Of a stretch of 57,542 nt of DNA, positions 3,915-57,542 are shown piece by piece. A program made the translations under genes and the position numbers. This DNA is from Candidatus Anderseniibacteriota bacterium (GTDB lineage: Bacteria; Patescibacteriota; Andersenbacteria; UBA10190), in contig JAIOOW010000002.1 in the NCBI GenBank assembly GCA_021414205.1, forward strand, positions 155,520 through 213,061. The letters are read 5' to 3'. The stretch's first letter is position 1. Every line of letters begins with the position of its first letter. Under the pieces are notes generated by a model. It saw nothing but the letters and a program-made list of their open reading frames with translations, ran no database searches and had not been told where the DNA came from.

Positions 3915-4613
3915 TTACTTAGGCTTGCGGACGAGCAAGAAGTGCGATGAAGCAGTATGCCAATCAGAGCCATTGTAGCAAACGATTTCAAGAACAGTTT
4001 TTACGCAATTTTGCTTTAGTGCAACAGCCTTCCTCATGCCATAGATACTTGCAACAGAGCCCAGGGCTACTACACCGTCCCAACGAGGTTCTTTTAATGC
4101 AAAATTCCGGCACTTTTTGTTTCTCGCAACGGCAAGTAGATCGTCAATAAGAGCGAATTCATATCCATTTGCATACACCCACCTTTTGAGTTGGCCGTTC
4201 GTAATACTCTGATGTTGATCAAAGTGCGCCACAACTAGCTCACGAGACCCAGAAGGGAGTGTTAGCTCGAAAAGCTCTTTAATGGCTTTGTACGAGAAAT
4301 CCTCCATTGGATCAGCATCTCGTCCCGACCATAAAAAACTCCATTTTGCAGTATCATTTACTTGCTGAGCAATCGATCGTTCTTCCCCAGGCAAATCAAC
4401 GAAACCTAGTTCCGTAATCTGCGGGTCATACGGCATGGGCAAATCAGCAGGATCCAGCCCAAGAACTGTACGAATTTCATCACGATCAAACCGTCTTGCG
4501 TTGAGAACATCAGCAAGAATCCCCGTTTCCAGGAGCTTTTGCAGCTGGTTCGACTCAACCGTCTTTGCAAGTTCCAACACTTTCGTCGCTTGAGGCAGGG
4601 TTGCAAAATTCAT
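3915..4613 (-). CDS. Hypothetical protein (ORFan)
   Basis: Long ORF; start at 4613 is preceded by an AGAAAGGA Shine-Dalgarno; no family recognised. Confidence 0.75.
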   Translation of the reverse strand: MNFATLPQATKVLELAKTVESNQLQKLLETGILADVLNARRFDRDEIRTVLGLDPADLPMPYDPQITELGFVDLPGEERSIAQQVNDTAKWSFLWSGRDADPMEDFSYKAIKELFELTLPSGSRELVVAHFDQHQSITNGQLKRWVYANGYEFALIDDLLAVARNKKCRNFALKEPRWDGVVALGSVASIYGMRKAVALKQNCVKTVLEIVCYNGSDWHTASSHFLLVRKPK

Positions 4614-4806
4614 TGCAAGTCCTTTCTTATGAGTGGGGGTATATTGGGAAAGCAACTAACAATCCTTCCATACGTCCCAGTGAAATGAACTTGAGATATT
4701 ATAGTATAATTTATATTATTTGTCAAATTCAATTGCGTAGTAGCGCAGAGTAAATGAACATATTTAGTATAAAAATGACTATATAAAGTATTTTTATCAC
4801 CTCTGC

Positions 4807-6240
4807 CTACCGAGCAATCCCATCAAACCAGCCCTGGCATTCATTAATACCTTGCGGCGTACCTGCGCACATCTGGTGACTTTGATCAGGAAGCGAACCG
4901 AATGTGCATGAGCGCTGAGGTGTTCCTTGAATATTCGCACATAATTGCTGTATTGGCCCGGCTGGCAGAGCATCTCCCGCTGTTGGATTGCCCGCTACTC
5001 CGCAAGCAGATAGGGCGCTTCCGCACTCCACCAGCTTCCAGTTAGAAATAGCGAATACCGACGGATTCGTATTTACAATCGTATCCTGCGCTGCCACGGA
5101 GTTACTTCGTGTAACAGCAGGACAAAAATTGGGCGTATTAAAATATCTCGCACATGCAGTTGCAGTATGCAGCGCATCACATTGCGCACGAGGGGTGCCA
5201 GCCTGCAAAAATGCATCAGCAGCAACAGGATCATACATTCCATCTAAAAAACACGCCCCTGTTGTTTTTGTTCCTTTCCATGCTACCTGATCATCGAGCG
5301 TTGTTTGCGCCATCGTCGTCACGGGAGCAGTTGCACCATGACTAACTCCTGAAAAGAGCAGCTGCTGGCCGTTCCATGCATTGCGAATATCCGCGGACGC
5401 GCGAATATCTTTTACAAGCGTATCCACTCGAGTAGCCTCTTGAGAATACGGCGTTGATTGCCCACCCTTATTCGTTATAAAAGTTCCTGCGCACACCGCA
5501 ACATATCCATCTTGCGCATAGGAATCTAAAATTTTCCCATATACAGTATTTGAATTGCCGTATGAATCGTCGCAGTTCATTTCTCCGCCGCTAAAAAAGA
5601 TGACCATTTTCGAACAAGCTCCTCCAGCACAAGCATTCGCGTTGTACTCGTATCTCCAATAACATGGTTCGCTCACGCCATTCATGCCGGAACATGATTG
5701 GACAGTGGTTTGACCCTGAGAAGGAGGTGGTACAGACGGAGTAATAGTAGAAATCACCGTTGATACCGTTTCCACTATGCTCGTATTACTTGTTCCATCA
5801 TGAACTTCAACTTCTTTCGTAGTATCTGCAATGCCAAGCACTGATGAAAGCGAGCGCAAACCATTCGCTAATACCCCCGAAGTATCTCGCGCACTTAGTT
5901 TTAGATATCCTTTTCCTACGTTCAACTTAGGAATAGCTACGGTCGCCTTTCCATTATTCGGTACGCTTAATGCTAAAACGATACAATCCTTTCCAGATTT
6001 ATCTGAACAAAATTCTATCTTTTCCATTGGGTACTTTGCTCTATTTTCAGGGCTGGTATCCCATGTTATGGTCGCCTTGCTTCCAATCTGCAACGTAGAC
6101 GGTCCGAGTATATGAAAACTCAAACCAGGAGCAACGCGGGTCATGATGTATTGCGAAAAAAATCCAATCAAGACAATAAGAAGCAAACCTGTAAGCACGC
6201 TGCCACCAACAACAAACAACTGATTAAACTTAGGTTTCAT
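4807..6240 (-). CDS. Membrane-anchored/secreted Cys-rich alpha/beta-hydrolase-like protein with an Ig-like N-domain
   Basis: N-terminal TM segment, beta-rich domain, S/T/P linker, then FFSGG, GVSHG (nucleophile elbow), FLDGMYD and a C-terminal His (DQSHQ). Confidence 0.65.
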   Translation of the reverse strand: MKPKFNQLFVVGGSVLTGLLLIVLIGFFSQYIMTRVAPGLSFHILGPSTLQIGSKATITWDTSPENRAKYPMEKIEFCSDKSGKDCIVLALSVPNNGKATVAIPKLNVGKGYLKLSARDTSGVLANGLRSLSSVLGIADTTKEVEVHDGTSNTSIVETVSTVISTITPSVPPPSQGQTTVQSCSGMNGVSEPCYWRYEYNANACAGGACSKMVIFFSGGEMNCDDSYGNSNTVYGKILDSYAQDGYVAVCAGTFITNKGGQSTPYSQEATRVDTLVKDIRASADIRNAWNGQQLLFSGVSHGATAPVTTMAQTTLDDQVAWKGTKTTGACFLDGMYDPVAADAFLQAGTPRAQCDALHTATACARYFNTPNFCPAVTRSNSVAAQDTIVNTNPSVFAISNWKLVECGSALSACGVAGNPTAGDALPAGPIQQLCANIQGTPQRSCTFGSLPDQSHQMCAGTPQGINECQGWFDGIAR

Positions 6241-8572: not shown

Positions 8573-8655
8573 GCCGTGGTGGCGGAACGGTAGACGCACA
8601 GGACTCAAAATCCTGCGAAGGCAACTTCATGAGAGTTCGATTCTCTCCCGCGGCA
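8573..8655 (+). tRNA. tRNA-Leu (anticodon CAA), CCA not encoded
   Basis: Acceptor stem GCCGTGG/CCGCGGC, anticodon stem CAGGA/TCCTG with loop CTCAAAA, long variable arm, T-arm GAGAG-TTCGATT-CTCTC. Confidence 0.97.
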
Positions 8656-45458: not shown

Positions 45459-46154
45459 ATGAAAACACCTCTTGTAAGCGTTCTTGTTGCTGCGTATAAC
45501 TCCGAAGATTTTATAGAAGACGCCCTACAAAGCGTGTGGGACCAAACATACAAGAATTACGAAATTATTGTGGTGAATGACGGATCAACTGATACAACAG
45601 CATCAAAACTGAACCAATGGAAACATAGAATAACTATTATAGAGAAAGAAAATGGCGGCATTGCGAGTGCTCGCAATGCAGGACTCGCCGCAACAAAAGG
45701 CAATTTTATCGCAATTCTTGATGCTGATGATGTATGGCTGCCAACAAAACTTTCCGAACAAATGGAATATTTTCGGAGCCACCCCGCTGTAAGCATTGTT
45801 TTTTCTTTAGCTCAAAACGTATTGCACAAAGATCTTGTGCATAGGAATAATATATCGCCAAAGCCATTCCCAATCATAGCGGCTCATATACCCGGAAACT
45901 GCATGGTGAGAAAAAATATATTCAATCAGATCGGATATTTTAACGAATCCATAATTTTAGGAGAGTTTGCAGAATGGTACGGCAAAGCATTGAACGCAAA
46001 TATCAAGATGGGCTGCGTTGATTCCCTGCTACTCCTTCGGCGCATTCACGGAAATAACATTGGAATCAAGGAAAAGAAGCGCTTTAACGATTACCTCCAT
46101 ATTTTAAAAAGAAAGATCGATGCCCAAAAAGCGCCTGCAGAATCGTCCGACTAA
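45459..46154 (+). CDS. GT2 family glycosyltransferase
   Basis: VSVLVAAYN, VNDGSTD, NGGIASARNAG, LDADD.W.P.KL. Confidence 0.95.
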   Translation: MKTPLVSVLVAAYNSEDFIEDALQSVWDQTYKNYEIIVVNDGSTDTTASKLNQWKHRITIIEKENGGIASARNAGLAATKGNFIAILDADDVWLPTKLSEQMEYFRSHPAVSIVFSLAQNVLHKDLVHRNNISPKPFPIIAAHIPGNCMVRKNIFNQIGYFNESIILGEFAEWYGKALNANIKMGCVDSLLLLRRIHGNNIGIKEKKRFNDYLHILKRKIDAQKAPAESSD

Positions 46155-47264
46155 TTGAGAAAATCTCAGCGCCACAATCGCAGGAACTGCCATAAGCGAC
46201 GGAGTTTGGCATAAAAATTTCAAGAATCTGCCAACTTGCTTCATACTGTTCTCGATAGTATATGGCCGGGATAGCGATTTCACATACCGCCACCAATACA
46301 GCTCAATTGCCGGAATAATTCGAGTATATGTATCTTTCGATTCCAAATACGTCATTCGCCGATCAGGAAGCGAAACGGGGGTGTTTTGCAACTGATCAAG
46401 AACCCATTCGGGAATATCAACAAACGATTGATCGCTTAAGTATCGCAATGCAACACCGACCGATAGCGTCGTACGCATGCGTTGAGAAAGATCCACGACA
46501 AAACGCCAATCTACTTGCCCGGAACGAATAATAAATACCGCATCAAGTATCCACTTTAACTGAATACCATCTTTTCCATTCCAACCCAGTGCATGAGCGC
46601 ACACATGGACTACATGGTAACTAGAAGAAAGCGTCATCGCCTTGCGATTCTGAATACCGATATGTTGAGTACCCTCGGCAAGCATCGCCCAATCGTCATC
46701 TTGTAAATACCCGTGCAATAGATGGCAATGCATATCCAAAATTCCCGACGAAGTATACAAACTCATCTCATGAAAAAAGTCTGACTGAAACAATTCGATA
46801 GCAGTATGCGTGCGATAGGCCGGATAGCGCTTGCATATCAGACCGATTGCTTCTGAGAAGCGATGCGCTGGAATCATCATATCTACATCATCGATTGAGC
46901 GCGCACCGATATCATTTCCATAATATAAAAAAATAAACGCCGCCCCCTTAAGCAGCATAAAAGGAATACTATTACTATCGAGCACATCCATTACTTTTTC
47001 TGCCTCATTAAGCAGTAAAGAATTTTTAAGCCACGAAGCCTGATACGCATTTTTACATACCGTAATCCATGCATCTTCCGGAAGAAGTCGCAGGAGCTTC
47101 CTATATGCAAACGGGAATAGCCGTAGGCTTCCATGGTCTAAATCCTCATAGTTGCCAGCAACAGCCTTCCACTGATTCCACAACGCAGAAAACTGATCAT
47201 CCGGAGCAAGCAGTGCCCGAATAAGCAGCCCCTGTGTCGCACTCGGAAATACAAATATGCTCAT
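46104..47264 (-). CDS. Nucleotidyltransferase (NTP_transf_5-like, as found in lasso-peptide clusters)
   Basis: LLKGAA...YY.......RSIDDVDMMIP, DMH, HVCAH, W..D. Confidence 0.85.
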   Translation of the reverse strand: MSIFVFPSATQGLLIRALLAPDDQFSALWNQWKAVAGNYEDLDHGSLRLFPFAYRKLLRLLPEDAWITVCKNAYQASWLKNSLLLNEAEKVMDVLDSNSIPFMLLKGAAFIFLYYGNDIGARSIDDVDMMIPAHRFSEAIGLICKRYPAYRTHTAIELFQSDFFHEMSLYTSSGILDMHCHLLHGYLQDDDWAMLAEGTQHIGIQNRKAMTLSSSYHVVHVCAHALGWNGKDGIQLKWILDAVFIIRSGQVDWRFVVDLSQRMRTTLSVGVALRYLSDQSFVDIPEWVLDQLQNTPVSLPDRRMTYLESKDTYTRIIPAIELYWWRYVKSLSRPYTIENSMKQVGRFLKFLCQTPSLMAVPAIVALRFSQLVGRFCRRFLGIDLSF

Positions 47265-48856
47265 AGAGTGATTATGCGCCCGTCAGAAATTTCATACCGT
47301 GCATCAGCGATCGCAATCAAGCTCTGGTCATGAGTAATGCAAATGATTGTTGTTGTGGGTAATAAAGACTTCAGCCGAGCAAATAATACATTGCGATATT
47401 CCTCATCTAAATGATTTGTCGCCTCATCTAGGAAAAGAATCTTTGGTCTTCGCTCCAATGCGCGAGAAATCATCAGGCGCTGCTTCTCACCTCCCGAAAG
47501 AGACGCCGTGTCTCTCGTACCATCTATAAAAAAATCGCTGCGACCCAACACAGAGACTTGCCCCCCGCCTAATCCGTACTGCTCGTTCTCTTTTACGCTC
47601 GCATTCAAAAAAATCGCTTCTTGAGAAACCACTCCTATCTGCCGGCGATACGATGAAATATCAATAGTTCTCAAGCTTGCACCGTCAATAAAAATATCTC
47701 CCGCATCAGGCACCAACAATCCGAGTATTGCGAAAAGAAGCGTCGTTTTCCCTGCTCCATTCTTCCCCTCAACAACAGATAATTCTCCTGCCTTAAATAC
47801 CGCGTTCGCATTCCGTAGGATCGTATCACCTCCAACAGAAAGAGATATATTTCGTAAAGAAATTTCTCCCTTGACCTCGTGGTGCACCGTACCGGAATAT
47901 GGCGTTTCTTGGGAAATAGCGAGCACCTGCTCAATGCGAGATAATGCGTCATGCAACATAACTACATGAGGCCACCCCATAAACAGCGTTGCAATCTGCG
48001 CTCGCAACAGAGAAAACCCTACGAAAAACGAAACAACCTGACTGATAGAAAGCTCTCCTCGGGAACTTAAAAAGAAGCCAAAGCCCAGCAAAACAATACC
48101 GAATACTGCCCCTACCCCTTCTTGAAACAATTGCAATATCGTCTGCTGGTACGCGAGCTTGCCTCCGGACTGCCTGACATTACCTACAAGATCTTCATAC
48201 GCGCTATCCTCTGCCCGCTCAGCTGTTTGCATCTTTACCAGCTCCCATGCGCGAATCGTAAATCCGACGCGTTCTTCAAATGAAACCATGGCTCGGCGGA
48301 AACGCTCCTGCAATGTCGACACTTTATTTCTCGAATACACTAAAGCTATAAGACCGAGCGGGAGCACGCCGCAAGAAATAAGAAATAAGACCGGGGAAAG
48401 CACAAAGAGCGCACCCAGCAATACAACCATCGATATGATCGCCGGCAATACTTGGCTTAATCCAATAGTTAATGCGAGATCCAATCGATACGTATCATTC
48501 ACAATCACGTCCTTGAGCCCTTCCGCATATTGCGCCCATGCGGATCGATGATGACTTTTCACAATTGTACGCACTGCATCGTGTTGCACCTTTTGAACCC
48601 CCTCTTTTACTACCTTAACTATCCCAAACCGGCTCATTGCGGAAAGGGCGATATCGACACTGCTCACCAAAAGCAGTGCTACGAGCGCACTTGCGATGCT
48701 ATCCCACCGAGAGTTAGGAACGCGATCAATAATGAATCGCAATATCAGCGGTATCGGTAACACCATAAATCCATGAATAACGGCGAGCAAGACATACCAT
48801 GCAAGCCGAGCTTTCTGCACAGAAAAATAACGAGACAATGTTTTTACAGTATTCAT
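47261..48856 (-). CDS. ABC exporter, fused permease/ATPase, without a C39 peptidase domain
   Basis: N-terminal TM domain; GKNGAGKTT, LSGGEKQR, LFLDEATNHLD, ITH. Confidence 0.95.
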   Translation of the reverse strand: MNTVKTLSRYFSVQKARLAWYVLLAVIHGFMVLPIPLILRFIIDRVPNSRWDSIASALVALLLVSSVDIALSAMSRFGIVKVVKEGVQKVQHDAVRTIVKSHHRSAWAQYAEGLKDVIVNDTYRLDLALTIGLSQVLPAIISMVVLLGALFVLSPVLFLISCGVLPLGLIALVYSRNKVSTLQERFRRAMVSFEERVGFTIRAWELVKMQTAERAEDSAYEDLVGNVRQSGGKLAYQQTILQLFQEGVGAVFGIVLLGFGFFLSSRGELSISQVVSFFVGFSLLRAQIATLFMGWPHVVMLHDALSRIEQVLAISQETPYSGTVHHEVKGEISLRNISLSVGGDTILRNANAVFKAGELSVVEGKNGAGKTTLLFAILGLLVPDAGDIFIDGASLRTIDISSYRRQIGVVSQEAIFLNASVKENEQYGLGGGQVSVLGRSDFFIDGTRDTASLSGGEKQRLMISRALERRPKILFLDEATNHLDEEYRNVLFARLKSLLPTTTIICITHDQSLIAIADARYEISDGRIITL

Positions 48857-49533
48857 TTCGCTTTTTTAACAATCAAGGAAAGAAGTTCCCTATTATAGTT
48901 TGCGCGCTCCGATAGGCTCAAAATATGGGATGCATTTTTTTGATGCACTCTTTTTTTCCATAGCAATTGTTCCACCGTGCCAATCTCATACCCAGCCTTC
49001 AGAACGCGCGCTACCCAATCAGTATCGCTGGCGATACTATATTGCGGATCAAACGCTCCTACGTATGAGAATAATTGCTTTCGTATCAGCCAGGCGGAAG
49101 GGCTCAGGTTTCGATGCATAACATCCAAAAAACCGTCGCGAACCCATCCTGGCTTTTGAACACCATTTTCTAAAAACCCTTCGCATAATGGCACACACAT
49201 GTGAATATCTGGATGCTTTTCCAGATATTCAACTTGCGCAGAAATTTTCCTAGGGAGAAATATATCATCATTATCTAAAAAAGAAATATACTCTCCGCGT
49301 GCGGCAGCAAAGCCCTTATTCCTCGCCGATGCAACGCCGCTATTTTTTTGATCAATGATGCGAATATATTCTGCATATGTTCTCAATATATCAGCCGACG
49401 CATCTGTAGACCCATCATTAACCGCAATAATCTCGAGGGGAGCATAGTCTTGCGCAAGAATGCTTTCTATCGCCTGCTCTAAAAAATGCTCAGCATTGTA
49501 TACCGGAATAACAACGGAAACGAGCGGGTTCAT
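48853..49533 (-). CDS. GT2 family glycosyltransferase
   Basis: VSVVIPVYN, VNDGSTD, NSGVASARNKG, FLDNDD. Confidence 0.95.
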   Translation of the reverse strand: MNPLVSVVIPVYNAEHFLEQAIESILAQDYAPLEIIAVNDGSTDASADILRTYAEYIRIIDQKNSGVASARNKGFAAARGEYISFLDNDDIFLPRKISAQVEYLEKHPDIHMCVPLCEGFLENGVQKPGWVRDGFLDVMHRNLSPSAWLIRKQLFSYVGAFDPQYSIASDTDWVARVLKAGYEIGTVEQLLWKKRVHQKNASHILSLSERANYNRELLSLIVKKAK

Positions 49534-50231
49534 AGCGCGCTATTTTTTAAAGATAAAATCTCGCGCGCTCCTCGGCGCTTGAGCGATGCACCCAGCACGC
49601 GAAGCAACGACGTATCACCAGATTTTAGCGCATGTGTTGTGTTCGTATCATGGATGCGATAAAAGCTTACAGCATCAGGAATCTTTGCAATTACCGCCCC
49701 TACTTCTACCGCCCTAAAGAACCAATCGACATCCTCATGGAGCAGATATTTCTCGTTCAGCATTCCGATTTCTTCAAATGCGCTTGCGCGAATTACGGCA
49801 GCCCCCAAAGACGGCAACAACTCCCCCTTGCCTAAAAAGTTTTCTCGAGAAGGCGCGCCGCCCGACACAAATCGCTGCACATGACCCATTGCAATCTGAA
49901 GGGCGGGATTTTTTTCATATTCAGAGAGCAGCAGCGCCACATGATGTTCCGTCCAAATATCATCAGCATCCAAAAAGGCCACATACTCTCCGCGCGCTCT
50001 GCGCAATCCCGCATTTCGAGCTGATGCCGGACCTTTATTTTCCTGCGTGATATATACAATGTTTTCTATCCATGATTCAAGCGCCTGCCTAATATCGTCG
50101 GTAGAGCCGTCATTAATAACAATAATTTCATACGGCAACTTCCCCATTGCAATTTCTATGCTGGCAAGAGCATCGCCAATATATTGAGAGGCATTATACA
50201 CAGGAACAACAACACTTATCATCGGGGCCAT
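49530..50231 (-). CDS. GT2 family glycosyltransferase
   Basis: ISVVVPVYN, INDGSTD, NKGPASARNAG, FLDADD, EDVDW. Confidence 0.95.
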   Translation of the reverse strand: MAPMISVVVPVYNASQYIGDALASIEIAMGKLPYEIIVINDGSTDDIRQALESWIENIVYITQENKGPASARNAGLRRARGEYVAFLDADDIWTEHHVALLLSEYEKNPALQIAMGHVQRFVSGGAPSRENFLGKGELLPSLGAAVIRASAFEEIGMLNEKYLLHEDVDWFFRAVEVGAVIAKIPDAVSFYRIHDTNTTHALKSGDTSLLRVLGASLKRRGAREILSLKNSAL

Positions 50232-50247
50232 ATAGTAAAATAGTATC

Positions 50248-51243
50248 TTATAATTCTTCAATAAACACAGATAGCTTCTCACTTATTTCTTTCTCATCTT
50301 CGCTTAATTGCAACGAGAATGATGGCACACGCTGTACGAGCTCAGCCAATACCGCAAACGAATCATTGTGCGTATCTTCCGGCAGTAGTTGAAATATCGT
50401 ACTGGGTGCTAATGCGAGCAGAGCATGCGCAGAATGTATCCTGCGCCAAGATGTTTCTTGAGCATGCGCAATAACGGGCAACACTATTGCACGCACTTCC
50501 AACTGTTGTGCGATTTTTCCGCTATATGCTTCGTGTAAAAACATCACTTCTTTTTCCCCGATAACTTCCAAGTCATGATGTTTAATTTTTGCGGAACTGT
50601 ACAAGCTGATCGCAGTTGGGACTGGGTCCATTTTTAATAACACATAATCATCGCTCGCATACACAAGATCATCTTGATGCACAACAGCAAGAGCCGTGCT
50701 CGTTTTTCCGCTCCCCCCTTTGCCCACAAGCACTATTCCTTTTTTATCTTTTCCGATGCTTGCCCCGTGTATCAAACTCAAGCCATGGCGCTGAAAAAAC
50801 CAATGGAAAATGATGCGAAACGGCACAGCGACTTCATACCAAGGAATGCGCGTATCATCTTCTACCCAAAATACCGCCCGCTTGTTCATACCATCAAAAA
50901 AAGAAAGGGTCGGCATACTTTCATTCACCCCCGGATTTACCATACACATCATTTGCTCTGTTTGGAGTCGTTGAACTTGGTCTCCAAATGAATGCTTGGG
51001 CCAATCAAAAAATTCTATTCGAGCACCGGAATGTAGCTCTATACGCAAATCGACCGCACCTTCGCTAGGCGCTGCAACATGCGCCAACGCTCTCGTCATA
51101 TTGATAAGAAAATCCTCAGATCCTGACACAACCTCTATACGCAAACCATCCACTTCAAATAGCCGCGAATGCAGGCGCGATAGCTGTTTATAAAAAAATT
51201 CTTGCTCCAATCTCTCAATAAACTCGTCCGAGTCAGCACTCAT
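50248..51243 (-). CDS. HPr-kinase-related P-loop kinase (lasso-peptide-kinase-like)
   Basis: LIHGAS, VGKGGSGKTST (Walker A), YASDD, AL..LAPSTIFQL. Confidence 0.82.
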   Translation of the reverse strand: MSADSDEFIERLEQEFFYKQLSRLHSRLFEVDGLRIEVVSGSEDFLINMTRALAHVAAPSEGAVDLRIELHSGARIEFFDWPKHSFGDQVQRLQTEQMMCMVNPGVNESMPTLSFFDGMNKRAVFWVEDDTRIPWYEVAVPFRIIFHWFFQRHGLSLIHGASIGKDKKGIVLVGKGGSGKTSTALAVVHQDDLVYASDDYVLLKMDPVPTAISLYSSAKIKHHDLEVIGEKEVMFLHEAYSGKIAQQLEVRAIVLPVIAHAQETSWRRIHSAHALLALAPSTIFQLLPEDTHNDSFAVLAELVQRVPSFSLQLSEDEKEISEKLSVFIEEL

Positions 51244-51252
51244 ATGCGAGCA

Positions 51253-51690
51253 TCACTTCACTTCCTGCATCGGCCAACTACCCTCACCCACATCATGAAT
51301 TGGATCAAGTAATAGCAACTCTCTCATGTCTTCATGCTTTTTAAGTGCTGGCTCTTCGTAATCTGTATCCGTTTCCGCAGATTGCTGCATAATTGCAGAC
51401 GCAGCATTATCGCCATTACTTGCGCGAATAAGCCCTTCTTGTACCAACCGTACAATAAAAGCACCCACATCCCGCTCAGCACGCTTTTCATCAATACTGT
51501 ATCGCCTACGTATTTCAGAATATATTATCTGCTCACTTAGCCCTTGCTCCAGATATTCCCAAATAACTGCCCCCGTACGATTCGCATGGTAATAACATCC
51601 GCTTTCCAAATGAATAGCAACAAGCTCCCCATCTATCACTTCGGCTACCACGCTTGGCTTACACACAGCATATATTGCGGAATCTGACAT
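51253..51690 (-). CDS. PqqD/RRE-domain protein with a C-terminal leader-plus-core-like tail
   Basis: VVAEVIDGELVAIHLESGCYYHANRTGAVIWEYL...FIVRLVQEGLI (PqqD fold) followed by YEEPALKKHEDMRELLLLDPIHDVGEGSWP. Confidence 0.88.
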   Translation of the reverse strand: MSDSAIYAVCKPSVVAEVIDGELVAIHLESGCYYHANRTGAVIWEYLEQGLSEQIIYSEIRRRYSIDEKRAERDVGAFIVRLVQEGLIRASNGDNAASAIMQQSAETDTDYEEPALKKHEDMRELLLLDPIHDVGEGSWPMQEVK

Positions 51691-51772
51691 AGTAAGAAAA
51701 AGCATACAAGACCCAGGTTCTGCAGACAAGCAATCCAGCGACCCCTCCGCTCTCGCAATAATACAGTATGTA

Positions 51773-54158: not shown

Positions 54159-54317
54159 AGAGATATTTTTTACGAATAAATTATATATACCAGATGGGTA
54201 TTTATATATTGAGCATACCTTCGGATGCAAAATAGTTCATGAGCATTTTATGAAGATATAAAAAAAGTCCGATTGAAGAGAGTAACCCTTCGCACGGACT
54301 TACAAAGAACATTGTTT

Positions 54318-54644
54318 TTACGCTGGTGCGGTGACCGGAACAACTGCATTAACTGCTCGAAACCCGATGAACGCAGTAGCAATTGAAAGGATCGCCACAA
54401 GCGCCATCAAGATGAACACCATTCTGGACGGACGCAATTTGGCGTTCTGCGAGAACATTCCAAACAGTGAACCGAACAAGGCGAAGCCCGAGATGAAAAT
54501 AATCGCCATCAAACAGAAGTTTGCGGCTACCACGTTTGAACTCGCGATAACGAGGTCGCCATCGTACGAACAAGAATTAACCTGAACGAATGCTTGAACG
54601 ACGCCAACTGGATCTTCGAAAACGCTCGGAACTGGTGCGGGCAT
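54318..54644 (-). CDS. Small hypothetical membrane protein (2 TM)
   Basis: Two hydrophobic helices; AGAAAGGGG SD. Confidence 0.6.
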   Translation of the reverse strand: MPAPVPSVFEDPVGVVQAFVQVNSCSYDGDLVIASSNVVAANFCLMAIIFISGFALFGSLFGMFSQNAKLRPSRMVFILMALVAILSIATAFIGFRAVNAVVPVTAPA

Positions 54645-54933
54645 AGTGCCCCTTTCTTACTAAATTTTTCGTTTCAACCCCACAATTGGCAATCAACAAA
54701 AAAGATCGCTGACCGCCAAATACGGGGCTGAAAACTCGTTTTTATGTGAAACGGGCAAGAGTTACTGATTTAAATCAATATACTCATATATTGTATTTTT
54801 GTCAAGTTATCGGAAAAAAGATTTTTGGGCAAAAATAGAGAAATTGCCTGTTAGAATCGAATATCTTATAGTGACATGTTAAGCATATTTGCTTGGCTAG
54901 TAATTTGCTCTCTCCAACACAAGGAACGGAAAC

Positions 54934-55587
54934 ATGCCCACTGCCCTTTTTTCTACGTACAACAAGGCTGGAGTTGTTGAATTTGCGAAGTCCCTCCATA
55001 GGCTTGGCTGGAAGATCATTGCATCTGGCGGTACCGCCAAAGCAATTTCCGATGCACATATCCCAGTCACGGACATTGCAACCGTTGTCGGCGAACCCAT
55101 TCTCGGTCATCGCGTTGTCACGCTATCCAGAGAAGTGCATGCGGGGCTGCTCGCTCAAAGAACACCTGAGGACAGAGCAGAGCTCGAACGCCTCGGAATC
55201 GACTTCATCGACTTGGTGTACGTCAATTTGTATCCACTCGTCGAAGAGATCGGGAAATCGGAAGCAACAATCGAAACGGTCACAGAAAAAACAGACATCG
55301 ATGGCCCGACAATGCTTCGATCTGCGGCAAAGGGAAGACGCTTCGTCATCACGAACCAAGACGCGGCAACGGCTGTATTACAACATCTGGAAAGCAACGG
55401 CGGCTTACCTATCGAAGATGACGAACTCCTTCAAACACTCGCTGCTAGCGCCGAACAGTTGGTTGCGACCTACTGCCTCGCATCCGCAATCGCTCTTACA
55501 CCTAACGTGACCAACAGAAGAAGGCTACTGAGTACGGCATACCATCAGATAACGGGGAGTGTTCTGCACATAGGCTTTAATAAATAA
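54934..55587 (+). CDS. purH: Stand-alone PurH N-terminal (IMP cyclohydrolase/MGS-like) domain
   Basis: ALFSTYNK.G.VEFA..L...GWKIIASGGT, VTLSR.VHAGLL, IDLVYVNLYP, DIDGPTMLRSAAK; no AICAR transformylase half. Confidence 0.8.
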   Translation: MPTALFSTYNKAGVVEFAKSLHRLGWKIIASGGTAKAISDAHIPVTDIATVVGEPILGHRVVTLSREVHAGLLAQRTPEDRAELERLGIDFIDLVYVNLYPLVEEIGKSEATIETVTEKTDIDGPTMLRSAAKGRRFVITNQDAATAVLQHLESNGGLPIEDDELLQTLAASAEQLVATYCLASAIALTPNVTNRRRLLSTAYHQITGSVLHIGFNK

Positions 55588-55620
55588 TCCGCTCAAGCCT
55601 TGTTGATCAACAATTTAACA

Positions 55621-55651
55621 TGCCGCCGATGCGCTATCGGTGGTATTTTTT
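55621..55651 (+). terminator. Intrinsic terminator
   Basis: TGCCGCCGAT-gcgct-ATCGGTGGTA followed by a T-run. Confidence 0.75.
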
Positions 55652-55666
55652 ACTTAATATAAAAAT

Positions 55667-55705
55667 AGTGAACATCGCTCGATACCGTTGGAACAGTTTG
55701 CGAAT
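55667..55705. repeat. 39-bp intergenic repeat, copy A
   Basis: AGTGAACATCGCTCGATACCGTTGGAACAGTTTGCGAAT; 34/39 identical to copy C. Confidence 0.85.
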
Positions 55706-55786
55706 GGAGGTCACAGAGATAAGATTGTTATTTGAATAAAAAAAGCCCGAGCATAGAAATGAATCTTACTCGGGCAAATGCCCACA

Positions 55787-56443
55787 CTACGAAAGTAACC
55801 AGACAGCCGTTACTACTACCCAGCTTATTTCGTTTGAAGTTTCGCTGATTGCGAGCCACACTCGATTGCGATCCCACCCTGCCTCTCGAACCATCAGATA
55901 TACTTGCCCCACGCGAATTGAGATGGTGAGGTGTCCGATAAAAATCGCAAGTCCTGGAATTCCACTTCCTCCTTCCACAAAGATCTTCCATGCCAGAAAT
56001 ATATTCGGAGTGAATTTGTAAGTCATGGCGAGAAGTCCTTTCATTGCCGGATCGAGAATTGTTTTCTCTTTCCAGTAACAAATCTGCACAAGAATAGTCG
56101 TGAGCACGCACACGACGATTACAATGCTAGTATCTTGCACACTCCATCGATAATGTCCGTTCACAAGGATAGCTCCCACAACCATAAGAGTAAGAACACC
56201 CCACGTGCCGTACGTGATCATGGCTTGTACCGTGAGTCGTGTGGGACATGCACGATGAGCAGCAATGCCCAACCAAATATGAAACCCGCAGTGCAACACC
56301 GATAAACCAAATACAGCAATGCTGATCCCGTGGACATCAGCAAGCGAACGGACAATCTGTGAACTGCAAGAGAGAATGGCTCCAGTAATTTGGATGGCAA
56401 ACAACATATCTGCCACTCGCCTACTTGTAGCAAAAGAAGACAT
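55787..56443 (-). CDS. Hypothetical multi-TM membrane protein (PQ-loop/SWEET-like duplication possible)
   Basis: About 6-7 TM in two similar halves (SQI......HGIS / PNI......SGIP); CAGAAAGGCGC SD. Confidence 0.7.
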   Translation of the reverse strand: MSSFATSRRVADMLFAIQITGAILSCSSQIVRSLADVHGISIAVFGLSVLHCGFHIWLGIAAHRACPTRLTVQAMITYGTWGVLTLMVVGAILVNGHYRWSVQDTSIVIVVCVLTTILVQICYWKEKTILDPAMKGLLAMTYKFTPNIFLAWKIFVEGGSGIPGLAIFIGHLTISIRVGQVYLMVREAGWDRNRVWLAISETSNEISWVVVTAVWLLS

Positions 56444-56522
56444 GATATGCGCCTTTCTGTATAACTATTGAATTGTTGAAGAGCGAATAAGAATTTAGCC
56501 TACTTCTTTAATTGCGTCAACG

Positions 56523-56546
56523 GTGGACATCGCTCGATGAGGTTGG
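56523..56546. repeat. Partial copy B of the 39-bp repeat
   Basis: GTGGACATCGCTCGATGAGGTTGG; 20/24 identical to copy A. Confidence 0.65.
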
Positions 56547-56555
56547 TTTTTGGAT

Positions 56556-56581
56556 AAAAAAGACTCGTATTGGAACGAGTC
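56556..56581 (-). terminator. Intrinsic terminator after the AAA kinase gene
   Basis: GACTCGT-attgga-ACGAGTC with an A-run on the plus strand (U-tract on the minus strand). Confidence 0.75.
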
Positions 56582-57136
56582 TCATAGAACAACAAACTCA
56601 GGGAACAGTTCAAGTTGTTCTGGATTGATGCGCCTAACAGTATCAAACCTTTTTCCTTCCCTCACGTCAGCAGCAAGAGAGTGAAAGAGTTTATAGTTCC
56701 TACCACAGAAGTATTCCTTTAGCTCTCGATACGATGGATTTAATTGGTCTTTATATTCTCTCTTTATAAACCAACACACAGCTGTTTCAATTGAAGTCAA
56801 AAAGTACAGCCCAATTACTCGATCTGCGCCACATTCTCGTAGCTTACGAAGCATCCAATCCCGATGACGTTCATCAGGAGTCCAGCAATCAAGAAGTATT
56901 GTTGTGTCAGAAGAATCTGATTCAAGTGCTTCTTTTATCATACCAAGAAGCTTATCCATAACATATATCCCGGCACCACTGTAGGAATCACACCACCCAT
57001 TCTTACCACCACACAACTCGTCAATGAGCTTGTCTCGACTCAAAAGAATGATATCAGGATGAGCAACAATAGCTCTTTCACAAAACGTTGACTTACCAGC
57101 ACCTTGAGGCCCGATGGTCATGAATACGGTTTTCAT
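56582..57136 (-). CDS. AAA_33 / polynucleotide-kinase-like P-loop protein
   Basis: MTIGPQGAGKSTF, LSRD, ILLDCW (Walker B-like); CAGAAAGGCGC SD. Confidence 0.8.
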   Translation of the reverse strand: MKTVFMTIGPQGAGKSTFCERAIVAHPDIILLSRDKLIDELCGGKNGWCDSYSGAGIYVMDKLLGMIKEALESDSSDTTILLDCWTPDERHRDWMLRKLRECGADRVIGLYFLTSIETAVCWFIKREYKDQLNPSYRELKEYFCGRNYKLFHSLAADVREGKRFDTVRRINPEQLELFPEFVVL

Positions 57137-57274
57137 ATTTCGCGCCTTTCTGAATAAAAGAACATTCCGAACAAGAAACGTACGCATACACTAGCACAAA
57201 CATAGAAATACGCCAAAAACATTCAAAACAAGGAGAAGTTTTGTTCCCCGGTTCCTGCAGGACGACAGAACAAA

Positions 57275-57313
57275 AGTGAACATCGCCCGATACCATTGGA
57301 ACACGTTGCAAAT
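57275..57313. repeat. 39-bp intergenic repeat, copy C
   Basis: AGTGAACATCGCCCGATACCATTGGAACACGTTGCAAAT; AAGTGAAC pairs with GTTCACTT at 57319-57326. Confidence 0.85.
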
Positions 57314-57419
57314 ATTAAGTTCACTTATTACTTCTTGTCATTTATAAAAATAACAAGTATAGTCTGCTGTTTGCCCTTTGCCAATTCAACCCGTTCTCGT
57401 TGTAAAAAGGAATATACGC

Positions 57420-57542
57420 ATGGATACAACACTTCAGATTCGCGAAGCTAACGTTACAGACATATCACATCTCATACGCCTAACGCTTGAACTTGCTCAC
57501 GACACAGGGGCTCACTTAAACAGAAGGGTTCTAGAGAATGGT
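57420..57542 (+). CDS. Probable GNAT acetyltransferase, N-terminal fragment (runs off the window)
   Basis: AAGGA SD, then MDTTLQIREANVTDISHLIRLTLELAHDTG, matching the GNAT IR.A...D...I start. Confidence 0.55.
   Translation, partial: MDTTLQIREANVTDISHLIRLTLELAHDTGAHLNRRVLENG

Follow-up and report, generated by a model that had tools for sequence, protein, structure and literature searches.

What kind of site is the short repeat that stands between single genes near one end of the stretch shown above, and how did those genes come to be there? The stretch (hereafter the window, meaning all 57.5 kb that were analysed) corresponds to positions 15693-73234 of an 80-kb metagenome contig from a member of the Patescibacteria (candidate phyla radiation, CPR), bacteria with very small genomes in which little is known of the gain and loss of accessory genes. 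A first-pass annotation had read the repeat as a recombination site bracketing single-gene cassettes, or alternatively as a regulator site or small RNA element. The first of these proposals is supported by our sequence comparisons, through variable gene content and through copies that stand independently of promoters: the repeat is probably the element-side arm together with the crossover core (the attR side) of site-specific integration at the 3' end of the gene for transfer-messenger RNA (tmRNA), a locus that is a hotspot. Single genes with their own signals differ there between strains that are ~93% identical elsewhere, among them genes for a kinase-like protein, for acetyltransferases and for membrane proteins, and in the case of one sister strain for a heavy-metal pump.

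The repeat copies belong to longer units that end like the tmRNA gene

The three copies were confirmed in position and similarity. A (55667-55705) and C (57275-57313) have 34 of 39 positions in common, and B (56523-56546) shares 20 of 24 with A. The copies lie in three successive intergenic gaps, separated from one another by two minus-strand genes, 55787-56443 (gene 1) and 56582-57136 (gene 2). A 29-nt probe with up to three mismatches found A and C only in the window (shuffled sequences lead one to expect 0), while the 12-mer ACATCGCYCGAT matches exactly three times, at A, B and C, and five times with one mismatch, against 0.65 expected. No further copy of this repeat was found elsewhere in the 57.5-kb window.

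The repeat proved longer than the 39 bp first assigned to it. Unit A reaches 55741 (~74 nt), copy A being its core-proximal half, and its minus strand ends with the core GATGTTCAC. Read on the minus strand of the window, a full type-1 unit consists of the T-run of a terminator, TTTTATCCAAAAACCAATCCCATCTCCAATATCTCCATTCGCA, 6-8 variable nt and TTCCAACGGTATCGRGCGATGTYCAC. B is more than the partial match it was taken for: it is a unit with an internal deletion of ~40 nt that retains the left end TTTTATCCAAAAACCAACCTCATC and the right end GAGCGATGTCCAC, and its undeleted form is found at the same junction in a groundwater sequencing run from another study (X2) and at locus L062. The left-end motif of the units, TTTT[AG]YYCAA[AG], has three matches in the window, all of them at array junctions.

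Beyond the window edge the contig continues for 6.8 kb, which we handled in reversed orientation as locus L001 (a position p in L001 equals window position 64381 - p). This piece holds three further type-1 copies (~4055-4085, 4600-4680 and 5895-5975) and, at 5159-5252, a type-2 unit of different sequence but with the same ..GATGTYCAC end. Profile searches of related, Andersenbacteria-like Patescibacteria recovered 24 type-1 units on nine contigs (L001, L004, L044, L047, L049, L054, L055, L060 and L062), and seven type-2 units plus two partial ones (8-9 in all) on six of these. Units are 40-95 nt long, fall into two sequence types, and each module of the array terminates in one of them. Two other scans gave false leads: a 22-nt pattern run against metagenomes returned eight loci of which L060 and L062 are true, the other six being chance matches in unrelated coding DNA, and a genome-scan match (L053) was likewise a chance match in unrelated coding DNA.

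What the units share is their end. The sequence GATGTYCAC terminates 20 of the 24 type-1 units as well as the complete type-2 units, and it is identical to the last bases of the tmRNA gene. Identity between unit and tmRNA end amounts to 8 nt; in the L044 copy it extends over 16 nt, and the hairpin that follows is likewise common to this unit and the tmRNA end of its genome. On every locus that includes a tmRNA gene, the units are found downstream of this gene and point the same way as it does. Within the array all units are co-oriented, even though four of the nine genes between them are inverted. The functional core is GATGTYCAC rather than the palindrome ATCG-N2-CGAT to which the first-pass annotation had drawn attention: the palindrome is indeed present in the window copies, but in the wider family it is not conserved, other sequences taking its place in L044, L047 and L004. 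An inverted 8-mer (AAGTGAAC / GTTCACTT) exists at C as described, yet is peculiar to that copy and not a general feature of the units.

A nine-module array starts at the last base of the tmRNA gene

The tmRNA gene (L001 3015-3419; Rfam 84.6 bits) lies 3.4 kb beyond the window end, adjoins smpB and terminates in ...GGCGGTTCAATTCCGCCCATGTCCA(C). The array starts at its last base. From there the order is tmRNA, a, b, c1, c2, GNAT, AAA_33, memb, MGS, g108 and then the chromosomal backbone, which makes nine modules, five of them between the AAA_33 module and the tmRNA gene; the window contains the distal four-plus modules of the stack. Each module is a single gene with its own promoter-like site and terminator, 0.55-1.3 kb in all.

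Both ends of the array coincide with the limits of sequence shared between strains. The source strain and a sister strain (L002) are collinear at ~93% nucleotide identity until exactly the last tmRNA base and unrelated past that base, and 12 genomes with the same tmRNA end all diverge from that point on. On the distal side, strain-shared sequence resumes at window 54255-54258, the backbone reading CTTCATAAAATGCTCATG at the array end. Because it resumes only there, the array also includes the MGS-like gene (54934-55587) and the 108-aa gene (54318-54644). No synteny was found for array genes or right-flank genes at other tmRNA loci.

The junctions between modules are tidy. At more than 12 of them a TTGACA-17-TAnnnT promoter of the next module begins 1-5 nt past the core, and the same TTGACA spacing occurs directly after the tmRNA gene in L002, L047 and L051. 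We considered whether TTGACA could be a relic of recombinase codons (..CQxVD) and dropped the idea: it appears only before a next gene on the same strand, as a promoter would.

Units read as probable tails of large serine recombinases

A candidate for the enzyme behind these junctions is found in a related genome with an identical tmRNA end (L046/L074), in which a 514-aa large serine recombinase (LSR; domains Resolvase, Recombinase and Zn_ribbon_recom) is encoded on the opposite strand within a prophage-like insert. The last codons of this gene, ..GCGHGRN*, are encoded by the tmRNA terminus. Its nearest homologues (L071 and L072) likewise directly adjoin the tmRNA gene beside smpB and overlap the terminus of the tmRNA gene with their 3' ends. 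Two type-2 units stand on the distal side of the LSR gene in L071: one, degenerate in its core, is ~6 kb away, and the other, separated from the first by a two-gene module, terminates in ...GCATGTCCA where the contig ends.

On the LSR strand, type-2 units translate as GHxLKIVKPKElDiEKFFaDIKxFAkRI..*, in the frame in which LSRs cross the core, and the peptide resembles the native tail of an unsplit LSR, P0026 (..GCGH GSKKFELSESNLEQLFKEVKQF..). Type-1 units, A and C included, translate as VDIARCRWNTlRtEi.EMGLVFG*, with the stop at one conserved position just before the terminator in most copies (the plus strand of unit A, 55668-55739, reads VNIARYRWNSLRMEVTEIRLLFE*, that of unit C VNIARYHWNTLQ...). 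Read in this way, the strongly conserved GTGTTCCAAC represents the codons R-W-N-T and the ATCG..CGAT palindrome the codons I-A-R. LSRs of this family that have native tails end in ..VD-x5-WN(T/Q)L.. (P0043, with VDFVRRSWNTL, P0047, P0076 and P0029), P0028 ends in ..LVDMGGIEPP, the translation of this tmRNA end in that frame, and most other members of the family end in translated tRNA T-arms. The two types of unit correspond to two core-crossing frames, VD-I-A-R-C-R-W-N-T for type 1 (A, B and C) and G-H-x-L-K-I-V-K-P-K for type 2. The link to a recombinase tail is stronger for type 2 than for type 1.

Module content differs between strains and species

The gene content between copies is not invariant, as it might be after an old duplication, but differs by strain and by species. 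The sister-strain array (L055) carries a heavy-metal P-type ATPase, a DUF305 protein, a ParB-like protein and others, and has only module a in common with the source array. Module a stands behind the tmRNA end in the source strain (L001) but behind a type-2 unit in L055; in both, identity begins at ATGTCCA|CATCTTAAATAAAT. The membrane-protein module recurs in L062 at 75% identity, with full units flanking it and different neighbours on both sides, homology ending at the core; it also has different flanks in groundwater run X2, at ~92% identity. In that same run the backbone is ~88-91% identical to ours, yet a 203-nt piece of the AAA_33 module (57066-57268) is 100% identical, which suggests that this module was recently transferred.

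Four further runs, X3-X6, come from one study in which two strains co-occur. In the major strain the backbone and g108 are followed by other sequence, MGS being absent, and divergence sets in at 54808 with recognisable unit-like sequence. In the minor strain a unit and the MGS module sit directly on the backbone, without g108 (the joint was seen in X3, X4 and X6). Single modules are thus present or absent within one set of samples.

In the sister assembly the sequence is interrupted within the first module downstream of the tmRNA gene (L002 3028-3358, L055 1-170), where the contig ends carry ~80%-identical versions of the gene; this suggests strain heterogeneity at the locus in the sister-strain sample.

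Proposed successive integration at the tmRNA end and its rivals

The model that probably accounts for the array starts from temperate or integrative elements of this lineage with an LSR gene that spans its own attachment site. Integration at ...CCCATGTCCA(C) places the LSR gene against the tmRNA gene, its last codons now being supplied by tmRNA sequence, and leaves the native last 23-35 codons, the stop and the terminator at the far end of the insert, where they constitute the unit. Serial insertions at the regenerated tmRNA end would push older modules outward, and single modules could be gained or lost by recombination at the cores. A scan of 20 module proteins revealed no recombinase; because the modules carry none, the enzyme must have been supplied in trans or lost after insertion. 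Decay of full elements could explain why the modules are without one, and several units are indeed truncated.

Several points weigh against this account. The homology of type-1 tails to LSR tails was not significant in profile searches (E 0.1-3), and the variability of third codon positions in type 1 was a trend only (p = 0.12); what links type 1 to a recombinase is the motif, the frame and the position of the stop. Among the genes called in contig positions 7357-80072 (73 kb), no Resolvase or Phage_integrase domain is on record, so that the recombinase which the first-pass annotation suggested looking for beyond the window edge did not appear in the part of the contig examined. The adjacency of L002 and L055 was deduced from an overlapping gene and a contig end, and all data are metagenome assemblies consisting of contigs. 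Lastly, what lies to the right of the core in complete elements is recombinase coding sequence, whereas in modules it is the TTGACA promoter, 1-5 nt after the core, and simple decay of full elements does not obviously yield junctions of such tidiness.

Since tidy junctions are unexpected from random deletions, insertion in trans stays alive as a reading of its own. The array could be an integron-like platform, in which cassettes made of promoter, gene, terminator and unit, without a recombinase, excise as circles and are reinserted at the tmRNA end or at cores by an LSR acting in trans. The unit would then be the recombination arm of the cassette (analogous to attC) and the tmRNA end the counterpart of attI, with the LSR coming from a resident or visiting phage or element. 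More than a dozen clean passages from core to -35 hexamer, including those directly after the tmRNA gene in L002, L047 and L051, speak for it, as do the presence or absence of single modules in runs of one study, the occurrence of the same module in arrays with different neighbours, and the AAA_33 fragment that is 100% identical in a run whose backbone is ~88-91% identical. The L071 case adds that an LSR element stands proximal to an existing module, which shows that the enzyme tolerates a non-native right flank. On the other hand, serine integrases normally need both attP half-sites and the modules retain the left arm only; the contig annotation contains no recombinase; and the truncated or degenerate state of B, R5, R6, 54808-54835 and the terminal units suggests decay over maintenance. 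On balance we hold this reading possible but clearly the less probable of the two. The corresponding larger claim, that this lineage of Patescibacteria has a functional analogue of the integron (a tmRNA 3' end as entry site, a ~75-bp arm derived from an LSR tail, and a trans-acting phage or element LSR exchanging cassettes between strains), is put forward just as tentatively.

What the array means depends on which of these holds. If modules are still mobilised in trans, it would represent a second, independently evolved integron-like form of gene capture, and would point to LSRs with a very short, sharply defined target that tolerate arbitrary right flanks; if they are scars only, it would be a readable record of successive integrations. 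In either case the unit profiles are a practical marker of a variable locus in fragmented assemblies, which often break there.

That the repeat is instead a transcription-factor site or an upstream promoter element shared by a small regulon of adjacent genes seems very improbable. Some units are placed as such a site would be: B, R4 (L001) and many copies in L054, L055, L060 and L062 lie 1-5 nt 5' of TTGACA-17-TAnnnT, and the two genes enclosed by A, B and C have a common 11-nt Shine-Dalgarno (SD) context. A fixed distance to a promoter, though, holds only before genes on the same strand. Half of the array junctions face the 3' end of a convergent gene, yet the orientation of the unit stays constant; A, R5, R6 and the tmRNA junction face a gene 3' end or terminator with no promoter there, and orientation tracks the tmRNA gene, not the adjacent gene. 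A regulator site would also leave unexplained why the core equals the tmRNA terminus, why TTGACA is spaced in the same way after tmRNA in three genomes, why modules are shuffled, and why frame and stop are kept.

Even less can be said for a structured RNA or single-stranded DNA element, be it a small RNA, a 3' untranslated region or a hairpin like those of attC, of repetitive extragenic palindromes (REP) or of miniature inverted-repeat transposable elements (MITE). The palindrome ATCG-NN-CGAT and the 8-nt inverted repeat flanking C might have hinted at it. RNAalifold found no consensus base pair across 17 units, single-strand folding was no better than that of shuffled sequences (z -1.0 to +1.2), and Rfam has no family that matches the units, tRNA and tmRNA being its only matches in window and array; the palindrome is moreover replaced in L044, L047 and L004, the units come after intrinsic terminators, and the R''/R' motifs of attC are absent. 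The regulator site and the small RNA offered as alternatives by the first-pass annotation are thus both unsupported. An old local tandem duplication of an intergenic segment, unrelated to recombination, would suit the three diverged close copies in the window but hardly a unit found on nine contigs of different species and samples, beside unrelated genes and always ending in a tmRNA-like core, and we give it next to no credence.

Comparison with known systems

The closest described system is that of the tandem ssrA genomic islands (ssrA-GIs) of Dehalococcoides, in which inserts associated with the serine recombinase DsiB follow each other after a single tmRNA gene, with a direct repeat of the tmRNA 3' end and a conserved motif upstream of it (PMC3146451). 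There the repeat is part of an LSR gene adjacent to attL, and islands without an integration module occur that have been discussed as cis-mobilizable (PMC3146451). Our locus resembles these islands in its tandem inserts downstream of tmRNA, with direct repeat and upstream motif, and, in relatives, in an LSR gene that bears the repeat. It differs in that modules are 0.55-1.3 kb long and hold one gene, whereas ssrA-GIs are multi-gene islands with a six-gene integration module; in that none of the nine modules has a recombinase; in an identity of 8 nt (16 in L044) at the very terminus as against 20 nt in the T-loop; and in its host, a member of the Patescibacteria. What sets the locus apart from ssrA islands is, in short, the single gene per module, the recombinase-free stack of nine modules, the 8-nt core at the terminus and the host phylum. 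As expected of a tmRNA-targeted element, the insert starts at the 3' part of the tmRNA gene, strain-specific DNA beginning at its last base, and a direct repeat of the target's 3' end lies at the boundaries. An own recombinase near attL is absent here (contig 7357-80072) and present in L046/L074, L071 and L072. A search of IMG/VR for a phage origin gave no exact match for the unit or for the tmRNA end.

Segments bounded by att sites in direct orientation that lack a recombinase and use one in trans are also known as cis-mobilizable elements, which accrete at the att sites of integrative and conjugative elements (ICE) and integrative and mobilizable elements (IME) (PMC5704250). The known cases of accretion involve one element or a pair, ICE-derived and several kb in length, whereas here we see a long stack of minimal units whose arm would be the relic of a recombinase tail. 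The composite islands of staphylococcal cassette chromosome mec (SCCmec) at rlmH (orfX) use Ccr serine recombinases, insert at the 3' end of a conserved gene and have short direct repeats at their boundaries. SCCmec arrays include elements without a recombinase as well, but the elements are far larger, the target gene is a different one, and the recombinase gene does not span the att site. A gene that does contain its att site is the tyrosine integrase gene of fuselloviruses of the SSV1 type, which integration splits so that one piece lies at each end of the insert; these viruses are archaeal and target tRNA genes, and the case is one of a single provirus, not of a stack of scars.

With integrons the array shares co-oriented one-gene modules, a fixed chromosomal entry point, module ends of more than one sequence type that have a short core in common with the entry site, and content that varies between strains. 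It departs from them in every defining feature that was tested: no IntI was found adjacent to the array in the contig annotation; the units do not fold and lack R''/R'; the modules are no promoterless cassettes, each having its own promoter-like site and terminator, and their genes occur in both orientations (four of nine inverted); modules enter at the end of an RNA gene; and a serine recombinase is the probable enzyme. That the repeat is no attC site, as had been stated at the outset, was borne out by the alignment, from which the RYYYAAC/GTTRRRY motifs are absent, and by the lack of excess folding. The same goes for dif/pdif sites (all units are in direct orientation and the alignment has no 11-6-11 dyad, no dif model having been run) and for CRISPR (the spacing is 0.55-1.3 kb and filled with genes, and the sole Rfam CRISPR match scored 22.5 bits against a threshold of 50). 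We found no description of such arrays in Patescibacteria in the literature.

Genes and signals of the modules in the window

The positions of units and modules are collected in Table 1.

Table 1. Units and modules of the tmRNA-associated array inside the window
Feature	Position	Strand	Description
Module g108 (most distal)	54256..54807	-	promoter-like site 54805-54777; gene 54318-54644; terminator and T-run
Degenerate truncated unit	54808..54835	-	TTTTTGCCCAAAAATCTTTTTTCCGATAAC; between MGS module and promoter of next module
Module MGS	54836..55667	+	gene 54934-55587 (MGS-like domain, 217 aa); inverted within array; terminator 55620-55646
Unit A	55668..55741	-	full type-1 unit, ~74 nt, at 3' end of membrane-protein module; nhmmer E 1.8e-21
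Module memb	55742..56522	-	promoter-like site 56520-56492; SD 56449-56459; gene 55787-56443; terminator ~55775-55745
Unit B	56523..56559	-	type-1 unit, ~40 nt lost internally between two ..ATC repeats
Module AAA_33	56560..57275	-	gene 56582-57136 (alternative start 57187); SD 57142-57152; terminator 56583-56560
Unit C	57276..57313	-	short type-1 unit, core-proximal 38 nt only; ends module with opposite-strand GNAT gene
Start of next module	57314..57542	+	double-GNAT acetyltransferase; promoter-like site 57335-57363; gene from 57420, runs off window

The two genes between A and C are not the ORFan genes they were first taken for. Gene 2 encodes a P-loop AAA_33 kinase-like protein; gene 1 encodes a 218-aa multi-pass membrane protein that has no Pfam match but, besides itself, 16 homologues in public data, and an identical protein is encoded on a 470-kb contig. 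Their common SD context was upheld: the window contains exactly two occurrences of the 11-mer CAGAAAGGCGC, one 5 nt 5' of each start codon, with 0 expected. As for the terminators ascribed to both genes, that of gene 2 was recovered by the terminator scan, whereas the hairpin of gene 1 (~55745-55775; a 7-bp stem, a long loop and a T-run) was missed by the scan and seen by eye. The most distal gene encodes a 108-aa membrane protein, and the unit of its own module is lost. A module that seemed to be shared by L001 (c2) and L054 was discarded, only the promoter leader being alike. The metatranscriptome of the source sample (X7) contained no sequence that matched the region.

Other observations

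Just inside the conserved backbone beside the array, window 45459-51729 encodes PqqD, ScmC (PF27840), three family-2 glycosyltransferases, an ATP-binding cassette (ABC) exporter and NTP_transf_5, a cluster that looks like a peptide-modification and export locus. One tRNA gene (8573-8655) is the sole Rfam match in the window.

Homologues of gene 1 also led to other places. Two of them (L068 and L069) stand in ordinary contexts. A third, 76% identical, is encoded on a Patescibacteria contig (L067 4746-20390) on which ~25 small, mostly co-oriented genes (HEPN, cupins, MarR, MscL and others) begin directly behind a tRNA gene. The contig has no unit of either type and may carry a separate, tRNA-associated kind of array.

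At other tmRNA loci, a small open reading frame (ORF) that by eye resembles a GIY-YIG nuclease follows the tmRNA gene in L004 (11111-12680), with a partial second 3' copy 1.2 kb further on, the two bracketing two genes; L003 is without this ORF at the corresponding place. On the chromosomal side of the tmRNA locus of L074 (10419-11482) two adjacent ORFs have weak RVT_1 matches. In a Parcubacteria genome (L072 3637-11530) the tmRNA gene carries an insert of 7-8 kb that encodes the recombinase, a Prim-Pol/PriCT_1/AAA_25 primase-helicase and a helix-turn-helix (HTH) protein, and that is apparently bounded by a 7-nt repeat of its own tmRNA end (TCCACCA), followed by a terminator hairpin.

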